Virus record (IMG/VR): IMGVR_UViG_2778261030_000017
Location: 1 to 8,610 of that record
From: a virus
Lineage: Duplodnaviria > Heunggongvirae > Uroviricota > Caudoviricetes
Length of the DNA: 8,610 bases
Strand: one strand, 5' to 3'
Below the pieces are notes generated by a model. That model saw nothing but the letters and a program-made list of their open reading frames with translations, had not been told where the DNA came from and did not search any database. Of the stretch, positions 918-8,610 are shown piece by piece; position 1 is the first letter of the stretch, and the number at the start of each line of letters is the position of its first letter. The position numbers and the translations under genes were made by a program.

Positions 918-1691
918 TTATATGCTGAAATGAATAATGCTATTCCAGAGTGCAGCAGAGAAAGTCTCCTGATGATTGAGCTCTGGAAATTGTACAATAG
1001 AAAAATTACTGTATTTTTCTGTCAAAATATTTCTCAAAACAGATTCCGCTTTGATGGCTTCAGGATATAAAGATGCGGAGTAATCAAGGCTAAGATTTCC
1101 GTTAAGCAAGCATATACTTTTAGTGTGCTTTGATTCTGATATATCATCTTTAATTATCTTGATGATTCTTTCATTCTGCCATAGAAGTGATGGTGCAGAT
1201 ATATAATAATAGTTAAAGCATGAATTATTTTTTAAGCAATCAAGCACAAAAATAGCACCTAGCGAGTGCCCCCATATACCGATTCTGGAACTGTTCGGAG
1301 CAATAGTACTAACCCATGGCATGATCTGAGTTAGTAATAATTCTCGGAAAGACTGGCTTCCTCCACCAGTAAAGTAGATCCATGCTGGTTTAGAGTTATC
1401 AACAATAGCATTTTCACCATCAGGAGTATAATCGTAAGCACGGCGATGAATGCTAAGGTTATTCCAAGATTCATAACCAAGTGTAACTAACACTGGTGGA
1501 TTGGGTAGTGCATCAATAACAGGCAGAATATCAGAAATGTAATTGTTGGCACTATTCCCATCAAGTATATAAAGAGTTGCATTATTTTTTTTAATGTTTT
1601 TTGGAGTAAAAATACATATTTTATATTTGGTGTCATGGTTAATTGAGTTAAATATGCGTGTTTGACAATGAATGTCCATATGTTTAGTCAT
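918..1691 (-). CDS. alpha/beta-hydrolase fold esterase (putative esterase family, serine hydrolase), 257 aa
   Basis: Minus-strand ORF with a GxSxG nucleophile motif (IGIWGHSLGAIF), an upstream YILDGN segment and a C-terminal His (FPELNHQ), consistent with a Ser-Asp-His triad. GGAG lies 5 nt upstream of the ATG on the minus strand (complement of 1697-1700). Very AT-rich relative to flanking DNA. No signal peptide evident. Confidence 0.75.
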   Translation of the reverse strand: MTKHMDIHCQTRIFNSINHDTKYKICIFTPKNIKKNNATLYILDGNSANNYISDILPVIDALPNPPVLVTLGYESWNNLSIHRRAYDYTPDGENAIVDNSKPAWIYFTGGGSQSFRELLLTQIMPWVSTIAPNSSRIGIWGHSLGAIFVLDCLKNNSCFNYYYISAPSLLWQNERIIKIIKDDISESKHTKSICLLNGNLSLDYSASLYPEAIKAESVLRNILTEKYSNFSIVQFPELNHQETFSAALWNSIIHFSI

Positions 1692-1873: not shown

Positions 1874-2169
1874 ATCGCTTGCTTAGGAAATTGAAGGCAG
1901 GTAACTATCATGTCAATGAACTAACCCACAGTCTAACGTACTTCTTTCCCCAATCACCAACAACCAAATTCCTGTTATCACCACTGGGATTTTGGCGCAA
2001 CTTCATGGTGCAGAGGTAAATAGCATCAAGCAAAATCTCTTTTTCCGTTGTTGTCCTTATGGGACGTCTGTCTTTCTGACCGATTTCATATTGGCGAGGT
2101 AATGGGAAGTTAAGTAGAATAGCTGCGGGTGCTTGAGGCTATCTGCCTCGGGCATGAACACCAACGGCA

Positions 2170-2250
2170 GATAGAGAAAAGCCCCAGTTAACATTACGCG
2201 TCCTGCAAGACGCTTAACATTAATCTGAGGCTCAATCCATGCTGAACACA
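2170..2250 (-). ncRNA. sok: predicted Sok-type antisense RNA region of the hok/mok locus (boundaries approximate)
   Basis: By analogy with hok/sok loci, the antisense RNA is made from the opposite strand across the mok start (ATG 2239). A candidate minus-strand promoter is TTGCCT, 17-nt spacer, TAACCT (complement of about 2254-2282). A minus-strand hairpin GCGTC-N6-GACGC lies further downstream. Exact ends are not determinable from sequence. Confidence 0.3.
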
Positions 2251-2451
2251 TGTAGGTTAGCCTCTTACGTGCCGAAAGGCAAGGAGAAGCAGGCTATGAA
2301 GCAGCAAAAGGCGATGTTAATCGCCCTGATCGTCATCTGTTTAACCGTCATAGTGACGGCACTGGTAACGAGGAAAGACCTCTGCGAGGTGCGAATCCGA
2401 ACCGGTCAGACGGAGGTCGCTGTCTTCGTAGACTACGAATCTGAGAAGTAA
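2239..2451 (+). CDS. mok: Mok (modulator of killing) reading frame, in-frame N-terminal extension of Hok
   Basis: ATG 2239 opens MLNTCRLASYVPKGKEKQA, which runs in frame into the Hok start. The MLNTCR beginning matches my recollection of MokC-type proteins. Confidence 0.55.
   Translation: MLNTCRLASYVPKGKEKQAMKQQKAMLIALIVICLTVIVTALVTRKDLCEVRIRTGQTEVAVFVDYESEK
2296..2451 (+). CDS. hok: Hok/Gef family type I toxin (51 aa membrane peptide), HokD/RelF-like
   Basis: Hand translation gives MKQQKAMLIALIVICLTVIVTALVTRKDLCEVRIRTGQTEVAVFVDYESEK: one transmembrane helix plus the conserved Hok C-terminal motif. A G-rich interrupted hairpin follows at about 2458-2485, as at hok mRNA 3' ends. Confidence 0.9.
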   Translation: MKQQKAMLIALIVICLTVIVTALVTRKDLCEVRIRTGQTEVAVFVDYESEK

Positions 2452-2570
2452 GAGACCAGGCGGGGGAGTAATCTCCCGCCACCTCTGATGTGTCAGGCAT
2501 CCTCAACGCACCCGCGCTTTACCATACTGAAAATGCTGTTTGAATGTTCATCTCTGAAAGAGGACTATGA

Positions 2571-3036: not shown

Positions 3037-3309
3037 ATGACACAACACATAAAATCCCACAATTCTGAAGCCGACCCGGAAATTAAGCAGGGGAGGCGTT
3101 TTCGTGCGCCTCAGTATGGCTGGTTTCACTATCTGTTCTGTACGATCGATGAGGCAGATATGCTTCAAGAGGCGTATCTGCGTCGCGGTGTCCGTGTGGA
3201 GCGGAGTCTGAACGCTGATCGTCTGACCTGGACCGTTTCTGTATATCTTCCTGTTCGTGCACATCTGCCACGGACACATGCCTGCTACCGTCAGCGCGTC
3301 TGGAGGTAA
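3037..3309 (+). CDS. hypothetical protein (90 aa), translationally coupled to the DUF968 gene
   Basis: GGAG at 3027-3030 sits 6 nt before ATG 3037. The stop TAA 3307-3309 is followed by the GTG start of the next gene at 3311. Family not recognised. Confidence 0.5.
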   Translation: MTQHIKSHNSEADPEIKQGRRFRAPQYGWFHYLFCTIDEADMLQEAYLRRGVRVERSLNADRLTWTVSVYLPVRAHLPRTHACYRQRVWR

Positions 3310-3310
3310 T

Positions 3311-4360
3311 GTGCGGGTATTACTTCGACCTGTTCTGGTTCCGGAACTCGGGCTGGTGGTCCTTAAGCCCGGTCGTGAATCATTGCCAGTTTTTCATCGC
3401 GGCAGGGTGCTGGTGGAGCCGGAACCGAAAAACATGCGGGCGCTGCCATCTGGAGCGGTTCCTACTGTTCGCCAGCCGCTGGCGGAAGATAAATCACTGC
3501 TGCCATTTTTCAGCGATGAGCGGGTGATTCGTGCAGCTGGCGGCGCTGGTGCACTGTCTGACTGGTTATTACGTCACGTGAAATCCTGCCAGTGGCCACA
3601 CGGCGATTATCATCACAGCGAAACCGTTATTCACAGTTACGGTGCTGGCGCAATGGTGTTGTGCTGGCACTGCGACAACCAGCTGCGCGACCAGACCTCC
3701 GAATCACTTGAGCAACTTACTCAACAAAATCTGACAGCCTGGATGATTGACGTCATACGCCATGTAATGAATGGCACGCAGGAGCGGGAATTATCGCTGG
3801 CTGAATTATCCTGGTGGGCGGTCCGCAATCAGGTGGCGGACGCGCTACCGGAAGCGGTATTACGTCGTTCGCTGGGGTTGCGTGCGGAAAAAATCCGCTC
3901 AATGTACCGTGAAAGCGACATCATACCGGGAGAACAGACCGCCACCAGCATACTGAAGCAGCGCACAAAAAATATTGCGCTACCGCCTCACACCCACCAG
4001 CAACAGAACCCACCACAGGAAAAGACGGTGGTCAGCATTGCCGTTGATCCGGAGTCTCCGGAATCCTTCATGAAACGACCTAAACGTCGCCGCTGGGTAA
4101 ATGAGAAATACACACGCTGGGTAAAGACACAGCCGTGTGCGTGTTGTGGTAAGCCAGCGGACGATCCTCATCATCTGATTGGTCATGGTCAGGGTGGAAT
4201 GGGAACAAAATCCCACGATATTTTCACGCTACCGCTGTGTCGGGAGCATCACAACGAGCTTCATGCGGATCCGCTGGCGTTCGAAGAAAAGCATGGTTCC
4301 CAGGTTGATTTAATTTTTCGTTTTCTTGATCACGCCTTTGCAACCGGCGTGCTCGGGTAA
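3311..4360 (+). CDS. DUF968 family phage protein (YdfU-like) with a C-terminal Cys/His HNH-like zinc motif, 349 aa
   Basis: Start reassigned to GTG 3311 (RBS GGAGG 3302-3306, 4-nt spacing), giving (M)RVLLRPVLVPELGLVVLKPGRE... and a 349-aa product that fits my recollection of YdfU-like proteins. C-terminal motif CACCGKPADDPHHLIGHG...CREHHNELH. The ORF-track start at 3257 has no RBS. Confidence 0.85.
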   Translation: MRVLLRPVLVPELGLVVLKPGRESLPVFHRGRVLVEPEPKNMRALPSGAVPTVRQPLAEDKSLLPFFSDERVIRAAGGAGALSDWLLRHVKSCQWPHGDYHHSETVIHSYGAGAMVLCWHCDNQLRDQTSESLEQLTQQNLTAWMIDVIRHVMNGTQERELSLAELSWWAVRNQVADALPEAVLRRSLGLRAEKIRSMYRESDIIPGEQTATSILKQRTKNIALPPHTHQQQNPPQEKTVVSIAVDPESPESFMKRPKRRRWVNEKYTRWVKTQPCACCGKPADDPHHLIGHGQGGMGTKSHDIFTLPLCREHHNELHADPLAFEEKHGSQVDLIFRFLDHAFATGVLG

Positions 4361-4372
4361 AAGAGGTTACTG

Positions 4373-4744
4373 ATGCGTATAGAGTTTGTTTTGCTTTACC
4401 CGCCGACGGTGAACACCTACTGGCGACGTCGTGGCAGCACATATTTTGTATCAAAAGCCGGTGAGCGTTATCGCCGGGCTGTGGCGCTTATTGTTCGCCA
4501 GCAGCGGCTGAAATTAAGCCTGTCCGGAAGGCTGGCGATAAAGGTGATTGCAGAGCCACCGGATAAGCGCCGCCGTGACCTGGACAACATTCTGAAAGCA
4601 CCGCTGGATGCGCTGACGCATGCGGAAGTGCTCATTGATGACGAGCAGTTTGATGAAATCAATATTGTGCGCGGTCAGCCTGTGCCAGGTGGACGGCTGG
4701 GCGTGAAGATTTACGAAATCAGAGGTGGTAACGATGGCGCGTGA
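4373..4744 (+). CDS. rusA: RusA family Holliday-junction resolvase
   Basis: 123 aa with the RusA signature [39 protein letters not shown] lies 6 nt upstream of the ATG. Position between the DUF968 gene and Q is the usual nin-region place. Confidence 0.9.
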
Positions 4745-5105
4745 TATCCAGATGGTTCTTGAGCGATGGGGGGCATGGGCAGCAAATAATCATGAAGATG
4801 TAACATGGCCCTCGATAGCTGCTGGTTTTAAAGGATTAATCCCGACTAAAGTGAAATCACGTCCTAAGTGTTCTGATGATGACGCCATGATAATTTGTGG
4901 TTGTATGGCACGATTAAACAAGAATAATCAGTATTTGCACGATTTGTTGGTGGATTATTACGTAGGTGGAATGACATTTATGGCTCTTGCACGTAAGCAT
5001 AGATGTTCTGATGGGCTTATTGGTAAAAGGCTTTATAAAGCGGAAGGTATTATTGAAGGAATGCTTATGGCTCTGAATGTCCGGTTAGATATGGATATGC
5101 GGTAG
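4734..5105 (+). CDS. late-gene antiterminator Q (phage antitermination protein Q family, QuuD-like)
   Basis: [25 protein letters not shown]...[11 protein letters not shown]...[27 protein letters not shown] matches my recollection of QuuD/82-type Q proteins. Start ATG 4734 follows GAGGTGG and overlaps the rusA stop by 11 nt. The ORF-track start at 4725 is a GTG inside that RBS. Confidence 0.85.
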
Positions 5106-5196
5106 GGATATATAGTGATGAGGGTTATGTTTTCTGTGTTTATAATTAACATGTTTATTTTTTGATGGTCATGTATTGTGGAAGGTAGATAAAATG

Positions 5197-5225
5197 TTGC
5201 CTGGTGAATTGAAAATATTGATAAT
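5197..5225 (+). promoter_or_regulatory. candidate sigma70 promoter for the CPBP gene
   Basis: TTGCCT (5197-5202), 17-nt spacer, GATAAT (5220-5225), about 30 nt upstream of ATG 5257. A separate perfect TATAAT at 5141-5146 may belong to the phage late promoter, but I cannot assign it. Confidence 0.3.
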
Positions 5226-5256
5226 CAATCTTCATCATTAAATAAAAGGAGTGCTT

Positions 5257-6075
5257 ATGTGGATTGTGTTAGTACTGTCACTGTCAACTCTCAGTTGGCA
5301 TAAGGTAGTGGCTTTTTCATTGTTGACGGTGTCTGTTGTCCTGGCTGTGCTTAATGATATTATTGATTGGTCGGTGTTATTTTTTGTTGCTACAATCGTT
5401 TTTTTTATTATTTTGAAGTTCAACTGGAAATATAACGCCTGGGCTAAATCTATATATGAAGTTGGCATAGTTTTATCAGCCATAGCATTATCTTTCCATC
5501 TATGGCCAGGGTTTCACAATCCTGTAGTGCTAAATTCTGTTACTGTTGGCCCTCAAAGTACTCCCTATACAATGTATTTTAATTTTGATAAAGCGCTGGT
5601 GCCATTTTTGTTAGTCCTGTGTACATCTTCTTTGTTTAAAAAAGAAGTAAAATCAGAAGTGTCTTTGTGGAAGTGGGGGGCTCTGTCGCTCTCTGTTCCT
5701 CTTATCCTGTTTTTGGCTGTTTTTTTTGGTGGATTAAAGCCAGAGATTCATTTTCCTGAGTGGTTGCCAGAGTTTATATTGGCTAATTTGTTTTTTGTGT
5801 CTCTGGCAGAGGAATCATTATTTAGAGGGTATATTCAATCACGGCTATCAGAAGTAACGTCTCCATTGGTTGCATTAATTGTGGCGGCTTTGTTGTTTGG
5901 TTTTTATCACTATTCAGGTGGTGCTTTACTTGTATTATTTGCCACGTTATCTGGTGTTGTGTATGGATTGTCATGGATGTGGAGTGGGCGTTTGTGGGTT
6001 GCCACCCTTTTCCATTTTGGTTTGAATCTGTGTCACTTGTTATTCTTTACCTATCCATTTTTAAAACATAATTGA
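5257..6075 (+). CDS. CPBP family intramembrane metalloprotease (CAAX protease / Abi domain), polytopic membrane protein, 272 aa
   Basis: All three CPBP motifs are present in order: EExxxR (AEESLFRGY), FxxxH (FGFYHYS), HxxxN (HFGLNLCH). Multiple hydrophobic helices. Start placed at ATG 5257 because AAGGAG 5246-5251 sits 5 nt upstream (the ORF-track GTG at 5251 lies inside the RBS). Strongly AT-rich compared with the Q gene immediately upstream. Confidence 0.85.
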   Translation: MWIVLVLSLSTLSWHKVVAFSLLTVSVVLAVLNDIIDWSVLFFVATIVFFIILKFNWKYNAWAKSIYEVGIVLSAIALSFHLWPGFHNPVVLNSVTVGPQSTPYTMYFNFDKALVPFLLVLCTSSLFKKEVKSEVSLWKWGALSLSVPLILFLAVFFGGLKPEIHFPEWLPEFILANLFFVSLAEESLFRGYIQSRLSEVTSPLVALIVAALLFGFYHYSGGALLVLFATLSGVVYGLSWMWSGRLWVATLFHFGLNLCHLLFFTYPFLKHN

Positions 6076-6216
6076 TTTTTTCTATGGTTTTAAATTTATA
6101 AGACTGAAAAATAGCAGGACGTGACATTTGCATGAAAAATATGCACGGCAAAGCATTTACGTACGTAAAAAATCAGGTATGCTGTTAAGAGTGGTTATTT
6201 CGCCGCATAGCTTGAC

Positions 6217-6240
6217 CCCGCCTCTGAGCGGGTTTTTTGT
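6217..6240 (+). terminator. rho-independent terminator downstream of the CPBP gene
   Basis: CCCGC (6217-6221), loop CTCTGA, GCGGG (6228-6232), then TTTTTTGT. Confidence 0.6.
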
Positions 6241-6361
6241 GCCCGCAAAGTAGCGCAGTGCGTTAAATGTGCTGGTAGTTATTAATACAGGTCTTTCAGC
6301 TTGCTGGCTTTTTCGACAAGAGTTATTGGTGTGTCACGTTAACCGGAAAGGGTAAAAAGAC

Positions 6362-6601
6362 ATGCTGAAACAGCAGGATATGACAGAAACCGCCAGAGTT
6401 GTGTTTGATGAATTAAGCGTCACCGAACCGGCGACGGTCGGGGAGATTGCGCAGAATACGTACCTTTCACGCGAGCGCTGCCAGTTAATACTGACCCAGC
6501 TGGTTATGCGGGTCTGGCAGACTATCAGTTCGGTTGTTACAGACGCCTTCAGTCCTGAAGGCTTTTTTATTTGTGGTAAATGGGCGGCTGGTGGGTGTTA
6601 G
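6362..6601 (+). CDS. questionable small ORF (79 aa, possible small HTH protein); may instead be non-coding late-leader RNA
   Basis: The ORF has backbone-like GC and a segment that could be a helix-turn-helix (TVGEIAQNTYLSRERCQLILTQL). Its last 57 nt contain a strong intrinsic terminator (6545-6570) upstream of the stop, and the RBS is weak. Coding status doubtful. Confidence 0.3.
   Translation: MLKQQDMTETARVVFDELSVTEPATVGEIAQNTYLSRERCQLILTQLVMRVWQTISSVVTDAFSPEGFFICGKWAAGGC
6545..6570 (+). terminator. strong rho-independent terminator (candidate tR'-like late-leader terminator)
   Basis: GCCTTCA (6545-6551), loop GTCC, TGAAGGC (6556-6562), then TTTTTTATTT. Perfect 7-bp stem. Confidence 0.6.
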
Positions 6602-6629
6602 CGGCACCTGTCAGTCCTTTGCTTATGTG

Positions 6630-6660
6630 TTGATGATAATTTACCTTTTGGGGCTATAAT
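6630..6660 (+). promoter_or_regulatory. candidate promoter for the AraC-family gene
   Basis: TTGATG (6630-6635), 19-nt spacer (longer than optimal), perfect TATAAT (6655-6660), about 35 nt upstream of ATG 6696. Confidence 0.3.
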
Positions 6661-6695
6661 TGAACTAACCAATTGCTAATGAAAGTAAAATTATA

Positions 6696-7409
6696 ATGGT
6701 TGTTGTCTGTTCAGTTATCATGGTTTGCTCCCCAATTAATATTTTTCTTGAAAAGGATACGTTGTCACTTAAGCCCGGCTCAGTCGTTCTGGCCACCAAA
6801 TGCATCAGGGCGCTTTTCCTTATGCATTATGGCAAAGTTAAAATTTTCGATATAAACCATTCCATAGTAAGTCAATATCTGGAAATTCAGCATAAGCTGA
6901 CAAGAACTCATCTGACTGACGTTCCGCTTTATCTGTCACTGGAACCCAACAACCCTGCGTTGGCTGAGGCTTTAATTACCAGCCAGAGATTTTCCGGAGA
7001 TACCACGGATATGTTTCTTATGATGGCATGCCTGTCGCTGTTTGAATCAGATGAACGGATATTATTATTTTTAAGTGGATGTTTATCCAGTATAAGTGCC
7101 AAAGTCAGGGCGATAATTCAGACAGATATATCAGCAAGCTGGACGCTTGGTGCGATTGCGTTACGCCTGCATATGAGTGAGAGTTTGTTAAAGATAAAAC
7201 TGAAAAATGAAGGGCACATGTTCAGTCGCTTGTTGCTGGAAGAGCGGATGCGTGTTGCTGTCAATATGTTATGTTCCCGGCATGGATATGGACAGGCTGT
7301 AGCAGAAAAATGCGGTTATTCAAGCTGGTCCTACTTTATTTCTGTATTTCACCGCTATTATGGCTTCCCGCCAGACAGATATGTATCCAGGCAAGGGCTT
7401 GATTATTGA
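6696..7409 (+). CDS. AraC/XylS family transcriptional regulator, small GadX/YdeO/AppY-like type (resembles prophage-encoded PatE/Psr-type regulators)
   Basis: 237 aa. The C-terminal about 100 aa show the AraC double-HTH pattern (WTLGAIALRLHMSESLLKIKLKNEGHMFSRLLLEERMRVAVNMLCSRHGYGQAVAEKCGYSSWSYFISVFHRYYGFPPDRY). The N-terminus MVVVCSVIMVC resembles AppY-type proteins as I recall them. AT-rich island; weak RBS, start could alternatively be ATG 6720. Confidence 0.85.
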   Translation: MVVVCSVIMVCSPINIFLEKDTLSLKPGSVVLATKCIRALFLMHYGKVKIFDINHSIVSQYLEIQHKLTRTHLTDVPLYLSLEPNNPALAEALITSQRFSGDTTDMFLMMACLSLFESDERILLFLSGCLSSISAKVRAIIQTDISASWTLGAIALRLHMSESLLKIKLKNEGHMFSRLLLEERMRVAVNMLCSRHGYGQAVAEKCGYSSWSYFISVFHRYYGFPPDRYVSRQGLDY

Positions 7410-7437
7410 TTTTCATCTGATTATTATTTTTTGACCC

Positions 7438-7513
7438 GGCCCTTTAGCTCAGTGGTGAGAGCGAGCGACTCATAATCGCCAGGTCGCTGGTTCAAATCCA
7501 GCAAGGGCCACCA
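7438..7513 (+). tRNA. ileZ: tRNA with CAT anticodon, Ile2 (lysidine-type, ileX/ileZ-like) rather than Met
   Basis: 76-nt cloverleaf folded by hand: acceptor GGCCCTT/AAGGGCC, D-arm GCTC-AGTGGTGA-GAGC, anticodon loop CTCATAA, T-arm GCTGG-TTCAAAT-CCAGC, discriminator A, encoded CCA. Closely resembles E. coli ileX as I recall it. Confidence 0.85.
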
Positions 7514-7520
7514 TCACATA

Positions 7521-7597
7521 CCGCCATTAGCTCATCAGGAAAGAGCGCCAGCTTTCGAAGCTGGTTGCGCGGAGTTCGGGTCCCCGAAGGCGGTCCA
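7521..7597 (+). tRNA. argN: tRNA-Arg (anticodon TCG), divergent and possibly a weak or pseudo-tRNA
   Basis: 77-nt fold with anticodon stem CCAGC/GCTGG and loop TTTCGAA (anticodon TCG), and a canonical D-arm. The acceptor stem has one A-A mismatch, the T-stem one A-C mismatch, and the T-loop is TTCGGGT instead of TTCRANT. Gene symbol assigned by position in the Stx-phage trio only. Confidence 0.55.
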
Positions 7598-7610
7598 TTA
7601 TCTGTATCCT

Positions 7611-7687
7611 GCGTTGTTAGCTCAGCCGGACAGAGCAATTGCCTTCTAAGCAATCGGTCACTGGTTCGAATCCAGTACAACGCGCCA
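7611..7687 (+). tRNA. argO: tRNA-Arg (anticodon TCT, reads AGA)
   Basis: 77-nt cloverleaf: acceptor GCGTTGT/ACAACGC, D-arm GCTC-AGCCGGACA-GAGC, anticodon stem ATTGC/GCAAT with loop CTTCTAA, T-arm ACTGG-TTCGAAT-CCAGT, discriminator G, CCA. Confidence 0.85.
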
Positions 7688-7701
7688 CACTTATTTTCCC
7701 T

Positions 7702-7727
7702 GGCTCGCTTTTGCGGGCCTTTTTTTT
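7702..7727 (+). terminator. rho-independent terminator directly after the tRNA cluster
   Basis: GGCTCGC (7702-7708), loop TTTT, GCGGGCC (7713-7719; one U-G wobble), then T8 (7720-7727). Confidence 0.6.
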
Positions 7728-7923
7728 AAATGTCTCACAATTCAGGCGGTTGACTGTTGTCTGGTTTGCGGGGAGTTTGTTAAAAGAAACTGGCATGGTG
7801 AATCCCCCTGTGCGGAGGGGCAATCAGCGAGTAGGTATATGGGATAATCGCGGATTCAGGTGCTGGTACTGAATTCACCGGGAGGCACCCGGCACCATGC
7901 AATGGCACATAGCGCCACTCTCC

Positions 7924-7950
7924 AGCCCCTCTCCGGAGGGGCTTTCTTAT
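7924..7950 (+). terminator. terminator-like hairpin (+ strand)
   Basis: AGCCCCTC (7924-7931), loop TCCG, GAGGGGCT (7936-7943), perfect 8-bp stem, followed by TTCTTAT. Confidence 0.45.
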
Positions 7951-7954
7951 GGAC

Positions 7955-7983
7955 AAAAAAAGCCCGCGCAGGGAGACGCGGGC
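7955..7983 (-). terminator. terminator-like hairpin oriented for the minus strand
   Basis: GCCCGCG (7962-7968), loop CAGGGAGA, CGCGGGC (7977-7983), preceded on the + strand by A7 (7955-7961), which is a T7 run after the hairpin on the minus strand. No convincing minus-strand gene upstream of it in this window. Confidence 0.35.
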
Positions 7984-8051
7984 GGCAAGGAATAAACAAC
8001 AAAACGTGAAGTAATATTTCAGCTGGCGAATAATATCCGACAGTAATCACT

Positions 8052-8074
8052 CTGCGCAATAGCGCGGCCTTTTT
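8052..8074 (+). terminator. terminator-like hairpin upstream of the NanS-p-like gene
   Basis: CTGCGC (8052-8057), loop AATA, GCGCGG (8062-8067; one U-G wobble), then CC and TTTTT (8070-8074). Confidence 0.35.
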
Positions 8075-8176
8075 CGTATTGCGGGCTGTTGTCTCTCTTC
8101 TGCCATTGTCCTGTAACTTCCGGACTTCAGCCCGCTCCTCATTTTACTCACAATATTATCCCGGCCGGGAGGATTC

Positions 8177-8610
8177 ATGGCATTTAAACACTATGATGTT
8201 GTCAGGGCGGCGTCGCCGTCAGACCTTGCGGAAAAGCTGACACACAAACTGAAAGAGGGCTGGCAGCCATACGGCGGACCGGTTGCCATTACGCCGTACA
8301 CACTGATGCAGGCGGTGGCTATTGAAGGAGATCCACAGGTCGGCCCTTCATCTAAGCCGGACTGGTTCTACGTGGTTGTGCTTGCCGGACAGTCCAACGG
8401 CATGGCCTACGGTGAAGGGCTTCCGTTACCGGATTCTTACGATGCTCCGGATCCGCGCATTAAACAGCTGGCGCGCCGCAGCACGGTAACTCCGGGTGGA
8501 GAGAGTTGTACGTATAACGACATCATTCCGGCTGACCACTGCCTGCATGATGTGCAGGATATGAGTACGCTGAATCATCCGAAGGCAGACCTGAGCAAAG
8601 GGCAGTACGG
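8177..8610 (+). CDS. nanS-p: 5' part of a NanS-p-like 9-O-acetyl sialate esterase (DUF1737 N-domain followed by an SGNH/SASA hydrolase domain); continues beyond the window
   Basis: RBS GGGAGG (8167-8172) 4 nt before ATG 8177. Hand translation MAFKHYDVVRAASPSDLAEKLTHKLKEGWQPYGGPVAITPYTLMQAVAIEG..., then FYVVVLAGQSNGMAYGEG carrying the SGNH-type GQSN catalytic-serine block. This matches my memory of the gene found just downstream of stx in Stx phages. Confidence 0.8.
   Translation, partial: MAFKHYDVVRAASPSDLAEKLTHKLKEGWQPYGGPVAITPYTLMQAVAIEGDPQVGPSSKPDWFYVVVLAGQSNGMAYGEGLPLPDSYDAPDPRIKQLARRSTVTPGGESCTYNDIIPADHCLHDVQDMSTLNHPKADLSKGQY

Follow-up and report, generated by a model that had tools for sequence, protein, structure and literature searches.

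An intact hok/mok/sok module of the hokW-sokW type predicted in a lambdoid prophage nin region

The 8,610-nucleotide stretch of viral DNA analysed here (the window) carries at positions 2091-2520, on the + strand, a complete hok/mok/sok type I toxin-antitoxin module. Judging from its sequence, we hold with a probability of roughly 0.92 that this locus is an intact and functional module, that it represents the hokW-sokW allele, and that it travels as a small cassette within the nin region of a lambdoid prophage. The locus is not new: it has been annotated since the genome of phage 933W appeared (AF125520), and experimental work on the allele followed in 2021. Its value as a discovery is small, and its use is rather that of a well-annotated example, the complete form of a module that the Qin prophage of E. 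coli K-12, with its hokD gene, has lost.

The toxin and its leader peptide are encoded by two nested reading frames:

2296-2451, + strand: hok reading frame, 51 amino acids, Pfam HOK_GEF, with the Shine-Dalgarno (SD) sequence GGAG at 2283-2286
2239-2451, + strand: mok reading frame, 70 amino acids, opening 57 nt upstream of hok in the same frame, with the SD sequence GAGG at 2227-2230

The Hok protein matches the Pfam profile HOK_GEF (PF01848) over its whole length (profile positions 1-42 of 42) with 79.8 bits (cutoff 22) and E=1.1e-22, and it has the conserved residues of the family, namely C15, T17, T25-R26-K27, L29-C30-E31 and Y47-E48. The Mok product, as given in the list of open reading frames, is MLNTCRLASYVPKGKEKQA followed by Hok, 70 amino acids in all. 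A preliminary description of this DNA had pointed out a complete Hok frame preceded by an in-frame Mok extension, and both frames are indeed intact, hok at 2296-2451 and mok from the ATG at 2239. The 57-nt in-frame geometry is common to the R1-type locus, to hokC and to the prophage loci L002 and L003. The view that mok is out of frame in plasmid R1 was ruled out by inspection of the R1-type locus, where mok lies in frame 57 nt upstream of hok; an in-frame mok is therefore the norm in the family and no peculiarity of the present locus.

The toxin mRNA and the elements from which its structural switches could be built are the following:

2091-2120, + strand: hok promoter, with -35 TTGGCG (2091-2096), an 18-nt spacer and -10 TAGAAT (2115-2120), 9 of 12 consensus matches
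2127 to about 2520, + strand: full-length hok mRNA, with a predicted length of about 394 nt; its 5' end is taken from the start of the Rfam model and the conserved GGGUGCUUGAGG, the 3' end just past fbi by analogy with the family
2127-2138, + strand: tac, GGGUGCUUGAGG, the 5' end of the hok mRNA
2129-2155, + strand: metastable hairpin at the 5' end of the nascent transcript, formed between 2129-2139 and 2145-2155
about 2179-2187, + strand: ucb, or anti-SD, AAGCCCCAG, which pairs with the mok SD when the mRNA is closed and with tac when it is open
2227-2264, + strand: Sok-target (sokT) hairpin, in which the mok SD GAGG (2227-2230) pairs with dcb (2255-2264)
2459-2480, + strand: GC-rich hairpin after the hok stop codon (fold of -18.8 kcal/mol), with an equivalent in the R1-type locus
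2501-2513, + strand: fbi, CCUCAACGCACCC, complementary to tac

These elements, including the concept of the metastable hairpin, are used as defined by Le Rhun et al. (PMC9841398). The span of 2100-2520 first proposed for the locus proves nearly exact, with fbi ending at 2513, except that the -35 box of the hok promoter falls just outside it. This promoter lies 6 nt upstream of the predicted +1. Its -10 box is shared with 933W and its -35 side is different, because homology with 933W begins only at 2105; the strength of the promoter could therefore differ from that in 933W and Sp5.

According to folding predictions, the sequence can form all the switches of the R1 type: ucb with the mok SD, tac with ucb together with the mok SD with dcb, and the metastable hairpin. 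The minimum free energy (MFE) fold of the full-length mRNA (2127-2520) has -162.6 kcal/mol (z=-7.4), with both ends of the molecule paired. In this fold tac is bound to fbi, while in the isolated 5' domain its partner is ucb. The pairings of ucb are seen in the full-length MFE fold and in the folds of 2176-2236 and 2127-2187, and the corresponding alignment columns (71-77) are conserved. The region 2127-2160, folded by itself, gives the metastable hairpin at -18.8 kcal/mol, and the sokT hairpin, which is also present in the Rfam structure line, forms at -13.4 kcal/mol in the fold of 2222-2270; its loop is the heptanucleotide CUGAACA (2242-2248), with the YUNR motif CUGA. When the tac/ucb pairing is enforced on the 3'-truncated RNA, the sokT hairpin appears in a structure 1.7 kcal/mol above the MFE. 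The MFE structure of this truncated RNA has the metastable hairpin at its 5' end, favoured over the open tac/ucb form by that margin, and energy prediction therefore cannot decide which of the two forms is used. RNAalifold, applied to 22 diverse leaders, recovers the tac/ucb pairs, the adjacent stem and the SD/dcb pairs; four pairs of tac/ucb and the adjacent stems show changes on both sides, one pair of the adjacent stem has both of its bases changed in 12 sequences, and the GGC/GCC pairs of sokT are kept in all 22 loci.

The tac-fbi duplex comprises 12 pairs with a single bulge and has -21.5 kcal/mol, a value that none of 200 shuffled sequences equalled. The fbi element lies 49 nt past the stop codon, a position typical of the family: in a set of 44 distinct hok loci (from Escherichia, Shigella, Kluyvera, Photorhabdus, Pantoea, Enterobacter, Buttiauxella and others), the best partner of tac is found 45-60 nt past the stop codon in most cases, and in 40 of the loci tac and the end of fbi are 353-401 nt apart. 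Moreover, tac and fbi covary, a GGGUGC/GCACCC class standing beside a GGGCGC/GCGCCC class through a compensatory change of U-A to C-G. The hairpin at 2459-2480, between the stop codon and fbi, is presumed, by analogy, to be the point where 3' trimming halts to yield the translatable, truncated mRNA.

The leader is also recognised by the Rfam model named 'sok' (RF01794), which matches 2127-2301 on the + strand over its full length (model positions 1-157) with 113.5 bits and E=6e-26, the gathering score being 59. Since RF01794 is listed in Rfam as an sRNA and antitoxin gene and its match here falls on the + strand, one might take it for a sense small RNA, similar to CssrC, rather than for a part of the toxin mRNA. 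We give this reading practically no credence and have rejected it. The 157 positions of the model span the leader of the hok mRNA on its sense strand, from the conserved +1 to the hok start codon, taking in the mok SD and ATG, and not the 71-nt Sok; the same model matches the sense strand of hokC, of the R1-type hok and of hokW, all loci with an annotated hok; and the genuine Sok is a 71-nt reverse complement. The match is thus one to the hok leader.

The antitoxin side of the module is read from the opposite strand:

2177-2247, - strand: Sok antisense RNA, 71 nt, with coordinates transferred from the sokW misc_RNA of 933W by means of the mokW offset
2254-2282, - strand: Sok promoter, read from the sequence, with -35 TTGCCT (2282-2277), a 17-nt spacer and -10 TAACCT (2259-2254); start site at 2247

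Sok is predicted to fold into a single-stranded 5' tail of 14 nt, an interrupted hairpin of 55 nt and a U tail (-30 kcal/mol, z=-5.0). It differs from the sokW RNA of 933W at one position (2204), in the tetraloop of the hairpin, and its promoter is identical, base for base, to the sokW promoter of 933W and Sp5. The preliminary description had rightly suspected an antisense promoter, which it drew across the mok start; the promoter actually lies past the mok ATG, within codons 6-15 of mok, and it is the Sok transcript that spans the mok ATG and the mok SD. A scan for consensus sigma-70 promoters and a search with a terminator pattern detected neither the Sok promoter nor the Sok terminator. The former was missed because its -10 hexamer, TAACCT, agrees with the consensus at 3 of 6 positions, which is under the threshold, and the latter because the Sok hairpin is interrupted, which the pattern does not allow. 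We rejected the idea that this failure proves the promoter absent, as the same promoter has been validated experimentally in sokW: primers YO-421/422 replace the equivalent of window positions 2253-2259 and abolish the antitoxin activity of the Sp5 constructs (PMC8621323).

The argument that the module is functional rests mainly on its closeness to this tested allele. In a megablast search against phage genomes, the locus is found at 99.1% identity in 933W, in VT2-Sakai (Sp5) and in many other Stx phages, and the 933W record AF125520 (the Plunkett annotation) labels the region as mokW, hokW and sokW antisense RNA. No difference from hokW-sokW of 933W and Sp5 is seen in Hok, in Mok, in the Sok promoter, in the 5' tail of Sok or in any of the regulatory pairings. 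Across 2110-2520, three positions differ from 933W: 2121, between the hok -10 box and +1; 2204, in the Sok hairpin tetraloop; and 2459, where the G present here gives the 3' hairpin one more G-C pair at its base. None of these lies in a reading frame, a promoter hexamer or a predicted base pair. The transcribed unit differs by only two bases (2204 and 2459), and nucleotides 2205-2458 are the same as in 933W hokW. The primers and probes of Takada et al. tell the same story, 11 of the 12 checked matching the window exactly and the exception lying in the upstream flank specific to Sp5. The northern probe for sokW, YO-592, matches window positions 2218-2247 without a mismatch, and window positions 2145-2299 correspond, except for base 2204, to the sokW fragment that complemented in trans.

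What is known of the allele comes from the work of Takada et al. (2021, Toxins 13:796, PMC8621323) on Sp5. HokW is toxic, and its toxicity is neutralised by sokW when this is expressed from its own promoter. A mutation of the sokW -10 box restores toxicity, and a fragment bearing sokW rescues the cells in trans (PMC8621323). Both hokW and sokW RNAs were detected on northern blots, and part of the antitoxin effect requires RNase III and Hfq (PMC8621323). After treatment with mitomycin C, the sokW RNA vanishes and HokW is made in a RecA-dependent manner and localises to the inner membrane (PMC8621323). Compared with a deletion mutant, induced cells carrying Sp5 hokW-sokW arrest growth about 40 min earlier and give an approximately two-fold higher phage yield, while deletion of the locus has no growth phenotype without induction (PMC8621323). 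The assays proposed in the preliminary description (ends of Sok, promoter mutant, northern blots, toxicity) have thus already been published for this allele.

Inactivity is frequent among chromosomal hok loci, and one may ask whether the present one is likewise a decayed, non-functional relic, as are most hok loci of K-12, where hokD is cut by relBE and hokA, hokC and hokE are disrupted by insertion sequences. The Hok protein of Qin hokD (relF) is 92% identical, the 3' hairpin and fbi are kept, and the gene occupies the same position on the lambdoid map, where it immediately precedes rem-ydfU(DUF968)-Q and points the same way. However, tac, ucb, mok, sokT and sok are replaced there by relBE, the end of relE being found farther upstream. 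The statement in the preliminary description that Qin lacks mok and sok is correct; it lacks tac and ucb as well, because its homology reaches no farther than about 16 nt upstream of the hok ATG, and the Rfam sok model finds no match on Qin hokD. The window shows instead the full leader, and not a hok gene that has lost leader, mok and sok and lies behind relBE. In K-12 hokC/mokC/sokC (gef), which is at a chromosomal site and not in a prophage, Hok is 80% identical, Mok begins with the same five residues (MLNTC), tac is of the same class, and the sokT loop and Sok 5' end, ATGCTGAACACATGTAG, are the same as here; homology ends right after the stop codon, beside IS186, and no fbi aligns.

The parB locus of R1 has the same layout as the present one, with mok in frame 57 nt upstream and the Sok promoter inside mok, and the same elements (tac, fbi, ucb, dcb, metastable hairpin, 3' hairpin) in an mRNA of similar length. 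Its Hok is only 45% identical, and tac contains GGCGC in R1 and GGGUGC here, with fbi changed to match. Relative to R1, the leader carries an insertion of 18-20 nt that lengthens the Sok hairpin and is without a 5' stem-loop segment of 16-17 nt. The R1 module is plasmid-borne, whereas the present locus is prophage-borne. The tac/fbi pairing, the Sok promoter and the Sok terminator hairpin, which the preliminary description had wished to see confirmed, are all present. A decayed locus had been expected to show itself by an absent antisense promoter or absent leader pairings; the Sok promoter and all pairings of the R1 type are present. Every element pairs correctly, the reading frames are intact, and the transcribed unit is two bases away from one shown to be toxic and Sok-controlled (PMC8621323), so that decay seems highly improbable. 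The earlier proposal of an active element rather than a relic is, to the extent that sequence likeness can tell, supported because the transcribed unit is only two bases off the experimentally validated hokW-sokW.

From these data and the R1 precedent, the following mode of action can be proposed. The weak hok promoter would give rise to a stable mRNA of about 394 nt. By analogy with R1, the nascent molecule would be silenced by the 5' metastable hairpin, and the completed one by the pairing of its ends through tac and fbi, with the mok SD sequestered by ucb. Slow trimming from the 3' end back to the hairpin at 2459-2480 would, as in R1, remove fbi; tac would then pair with ucb and the mok SD would enter the sokT hairpin, which would make the mRNA both translatable and accessible to Sok. 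The 71-nt Sok, transcribed from the promoter inside mok, would bind across the mok start region by means of its single-stranded 5' tail, block the translation of mok and hence the coupled translation of hok, and mark the duplex for RNase III. Antitoxin activity, its dependence on the promoter and its partial dependence on RNase III and Hfq have been established for the nearly identical Sp5 locus. When Sok is lost, which in Sp5 follows RecA-dependent prophage induction, Hok would be made, insert into the inner membrane and damage the cell. By analogy, the module is likely to play the same role in lysis and phage release here, though only if the prophage is inducible.

It could be argued, in line with the preliminary description, that the main job of the module is prophage addiction, or abortive infection directed against superinfecting lytic phages, rather than assistance to the phage's own lysis. 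R1 hok/sok stabilises plasmids and, when present in high copy number, lowers the plating of T4 by 42% and its plaque size by about 85%, in the words of work cited in PMC8621323; hok genes are about four-fold enriched in prophages; and the annotation of 933W hazards the guess 'prophage maintenance'. Nevertheless, the only effect measured for hokW-sokW is on lysis timing and phage yield (PMC8621323), and chromosomal hok loci failed in tests of post-segregational killing and with rifampicin, by the account of a recent preprint (bioRxiv 10.1101/2025.08.07.668861). We consider addiction or exclusion as the main role rather unlikely; either could coexist with the role in lysis.

The surroundings identify the region as the nin-equivalent of a lambdoid prophage. 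The gene order is DUF977, a reverse-oriented alpha/beta hydrolase gene of low GC content, hok/sok, a ygiW-like BOF protein gene and a rem-like reading frame, then DUF968, RusA, Q, a CPBP protease, an AraC-type regulator, three tRNAs and STnc100. The placement in the nin region given in the preliminary description is therefore correct, the locus lying between replication-side genes (DUF977) and DUF968-RusA-Q. In 933W, in contrast, the cassette is situated beyond the tail genes, adjoining attR, on the int strand, and this attR-proximal location downstream of the tail genes, proper to 933W and Sp5, is not the one found here. Homology with 933W is confined to 2105-2962, an 858-bp cassette made up of hok/sok and the ygiW-like BOF gene, and lambdoid genomes thus carry this same cassette at two different sites.

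It is common for EHEC genomes and prophages to carry the hokW-sokW allele in the nin region, and the transcribed unit is identical to copies in sequenced EHEC genomes. In particular, 2127-2960 is identical to the nin-region copy in E. coli 2013C-4225, position 2121 being the sole difference across 2110-2960. Two arms of the window, 1-2237 on the left and 3299-8610 on the right, match one prophage of that strain, L002, which carries a different hok allele, while 2105-4714 matches a second prophage, L007, about 16 kb away in the same genome. The exact combination of arms and cassette is absent from every complete genome in the collection. To judge from these matches, this is ordinary lambdoid mosaicism, with a crossover placed inside the hok leader, between 2205 and 2237. 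Copies with at least 99% identity occur in 526 complete E. coli genome records (about 10%), and some relative of the locus is found in 4712 of 5426 genomes.

The position of hok along the early transcripts suggests a further, quite tentative, possibility. In all six lambdoid contexts examined, hok is co-oriented with an antiterminated early transcript. It follows the rightward transcript that runs from the replication genes to Q in the window, in L002, L003 and L007 and in Qin; in 933W it lies along the leftward int transcript once the genome has been circularised across attP. Judging from orientation, the toxin might be wired into phage early transcription, so that, at induction, read-through would free Hok by depleting Sok. 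Sense transcription reading through the locus would run into the convergent Sok promoter and also provide additional target RNA. Depletion of Sok in this manner would explain the RecA-dependent loss of sokW RNA, which Takada et al. left unexplained. A related observation concerns specificity: the Sok 5' tail and its target loop (2242-2252) are hypervariable between hok copies, which may prevent cross-protection among the several hok/sok pairs of a poly-lysogen.

Finally, the end of the hok reading frame contains a further structure:

2424-2448, + strand: hairpin with the loop CUACGAA, a candidate site of A-to-I editing by TadA, present in the full-length MFE fold

Its 7-nt loop is closed by the stem UAGA/UCUG and contains the Tyr47 codon (TAC, 2434-2436) followed by GAA. 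The hexanucleotide TACGAA, whose meaning as an editing motif has been described (bioRxiv 10.1101/2025.08.07.668861), is invariant across the 6 hok loci compared. By analogy, A2435 is a candidate position for TadA editing, which would change Tyr47 to Cys.

Two prophages of E. coli 2013C-4225, L002 (which carries a different hok allele) and L007, lie about 16 kb from each other, and the window is mosaic with respect to them: segments 1-2237 and 3299-8610 match L002, and 2105-4714 matches L007. One crossover of the mosaic falls within the hok leader, at 2205-2237. Among the complete E. coli genomes of the collection searched, none carries this exact combination of segments. The hok/sok module and the downstream ygiW-like BOF gene move as one, in an 858-bp cassette (2105-2962) whose left junction lies within the hok promoter spacer. 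In phage 933W this cassette adjoins attR, whereas in the window it occupies the nin region, among the following features.

Features of the window in and around the hok/sok cassette
918-1691, reverse strand: 257-aa ORF, alpha/beta hydrolase by RefSeq annotation
2052-2066, forward strand: weak terminator-like hairpin with a T-rich run on its 3' side (pattern scan), shortly upstream of the hok promoter
2424-2448, forward strand: candidate TadA A-to-I editing site (A2435), from a predicted hairpin and a motif match
2571-2915: ygiW-like BOF gene, downstream of hok/sok (Pfam BOF, E=1.9e-33)
3037-3309: rem-like ORF
3257-4360, forward strand: 367-aa mechanical ORF covering the DUF968 gene (ORF listing)
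within 5251-7409, forward strand: gene for a CPBP (Rce1-like) intramembrane protease
6362-6601, forward strand: TrmB-like gene, frameshifted
6696-7409, forward strand: gene for an AraC-type regulator
7438-7687, forward strand: three tRNA genes (anticodons CAT, TCG, TCT)
7764-7954, forward strand: prophage sRNA STnc100 (Rfam RF02076, 138 bits)

Within the module, the short stretch that separates the mok ATG from the Sok -10 (2242-2252) coincides with the loop of the Sok-target hairpin sokT and with the 5' tail of Sok. It is hypervariable among hok copies, as judged against 3742-3752 of L002 and the further loci L008-L035. It reads CTGAACACATG in the window, AACGGCAAATC in L002 and CTAGACACATG, CTTTGCACATG or TCTCACAAATG at other loci. 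Around it, the SD, its hairpin partner dcb, the Sok promoter and the hok SD are all conserved in the compared loci. This pattern of sequence variation suggests that the sokT loop and Sok tail may insulate paralogous Sok/hok pairs from one another in poly-lysogens. K-12 hokC and hokW have the same 17 nt in this region, and hence the first 9 nt of SokC are those of SokW.

Further into hok, folding predicts a short stem capped by the 7-nt loop CUACGAA, which holds the Tyr47 codon TAC and the GAA that follows it. The predicted loop is a TadA A-to-I editing motif, making it a candidate site in hokW; editing at A2435, if it occurs, would recode Tyr to Cys. Editing by TadA has been reported in hokB and stated for hokC/D/E (bioRxiv 10.1101/2025.08.07.668861).

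On the upstream flank, the hairpin at 2052-2066 could, in the lysogen, keep transcription that starts further upstream from reaching hok, but it may mean nothing, since the scan is expected to yield 0.7 such sites by chance. The reverse 257-aa ORF, without any match in a Pfam profile search, looks like a moron set between DUF977 and hok.

Downstream, the 367-aa ORF is too long at its start: RefSeq homologues (349 aa) begin at the equivalent of 3311, directly after the rem-like ORF. The protease, TrmB-like and AraC-type genes lie between Q and the tRNAs, at the expected site of the late promoter region. The first tRNA is tRNA-Ile by RefSeq annotation. The three-tRNA arrangement is typical of Stx phages, but no stx genes follow it in the window. 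Shortly 3' of the cluster comes STnc100, ahead of a nanS-p-type esterase present in L002; this sRNA has been linked to the PasD sRNAs (2026 preprint).
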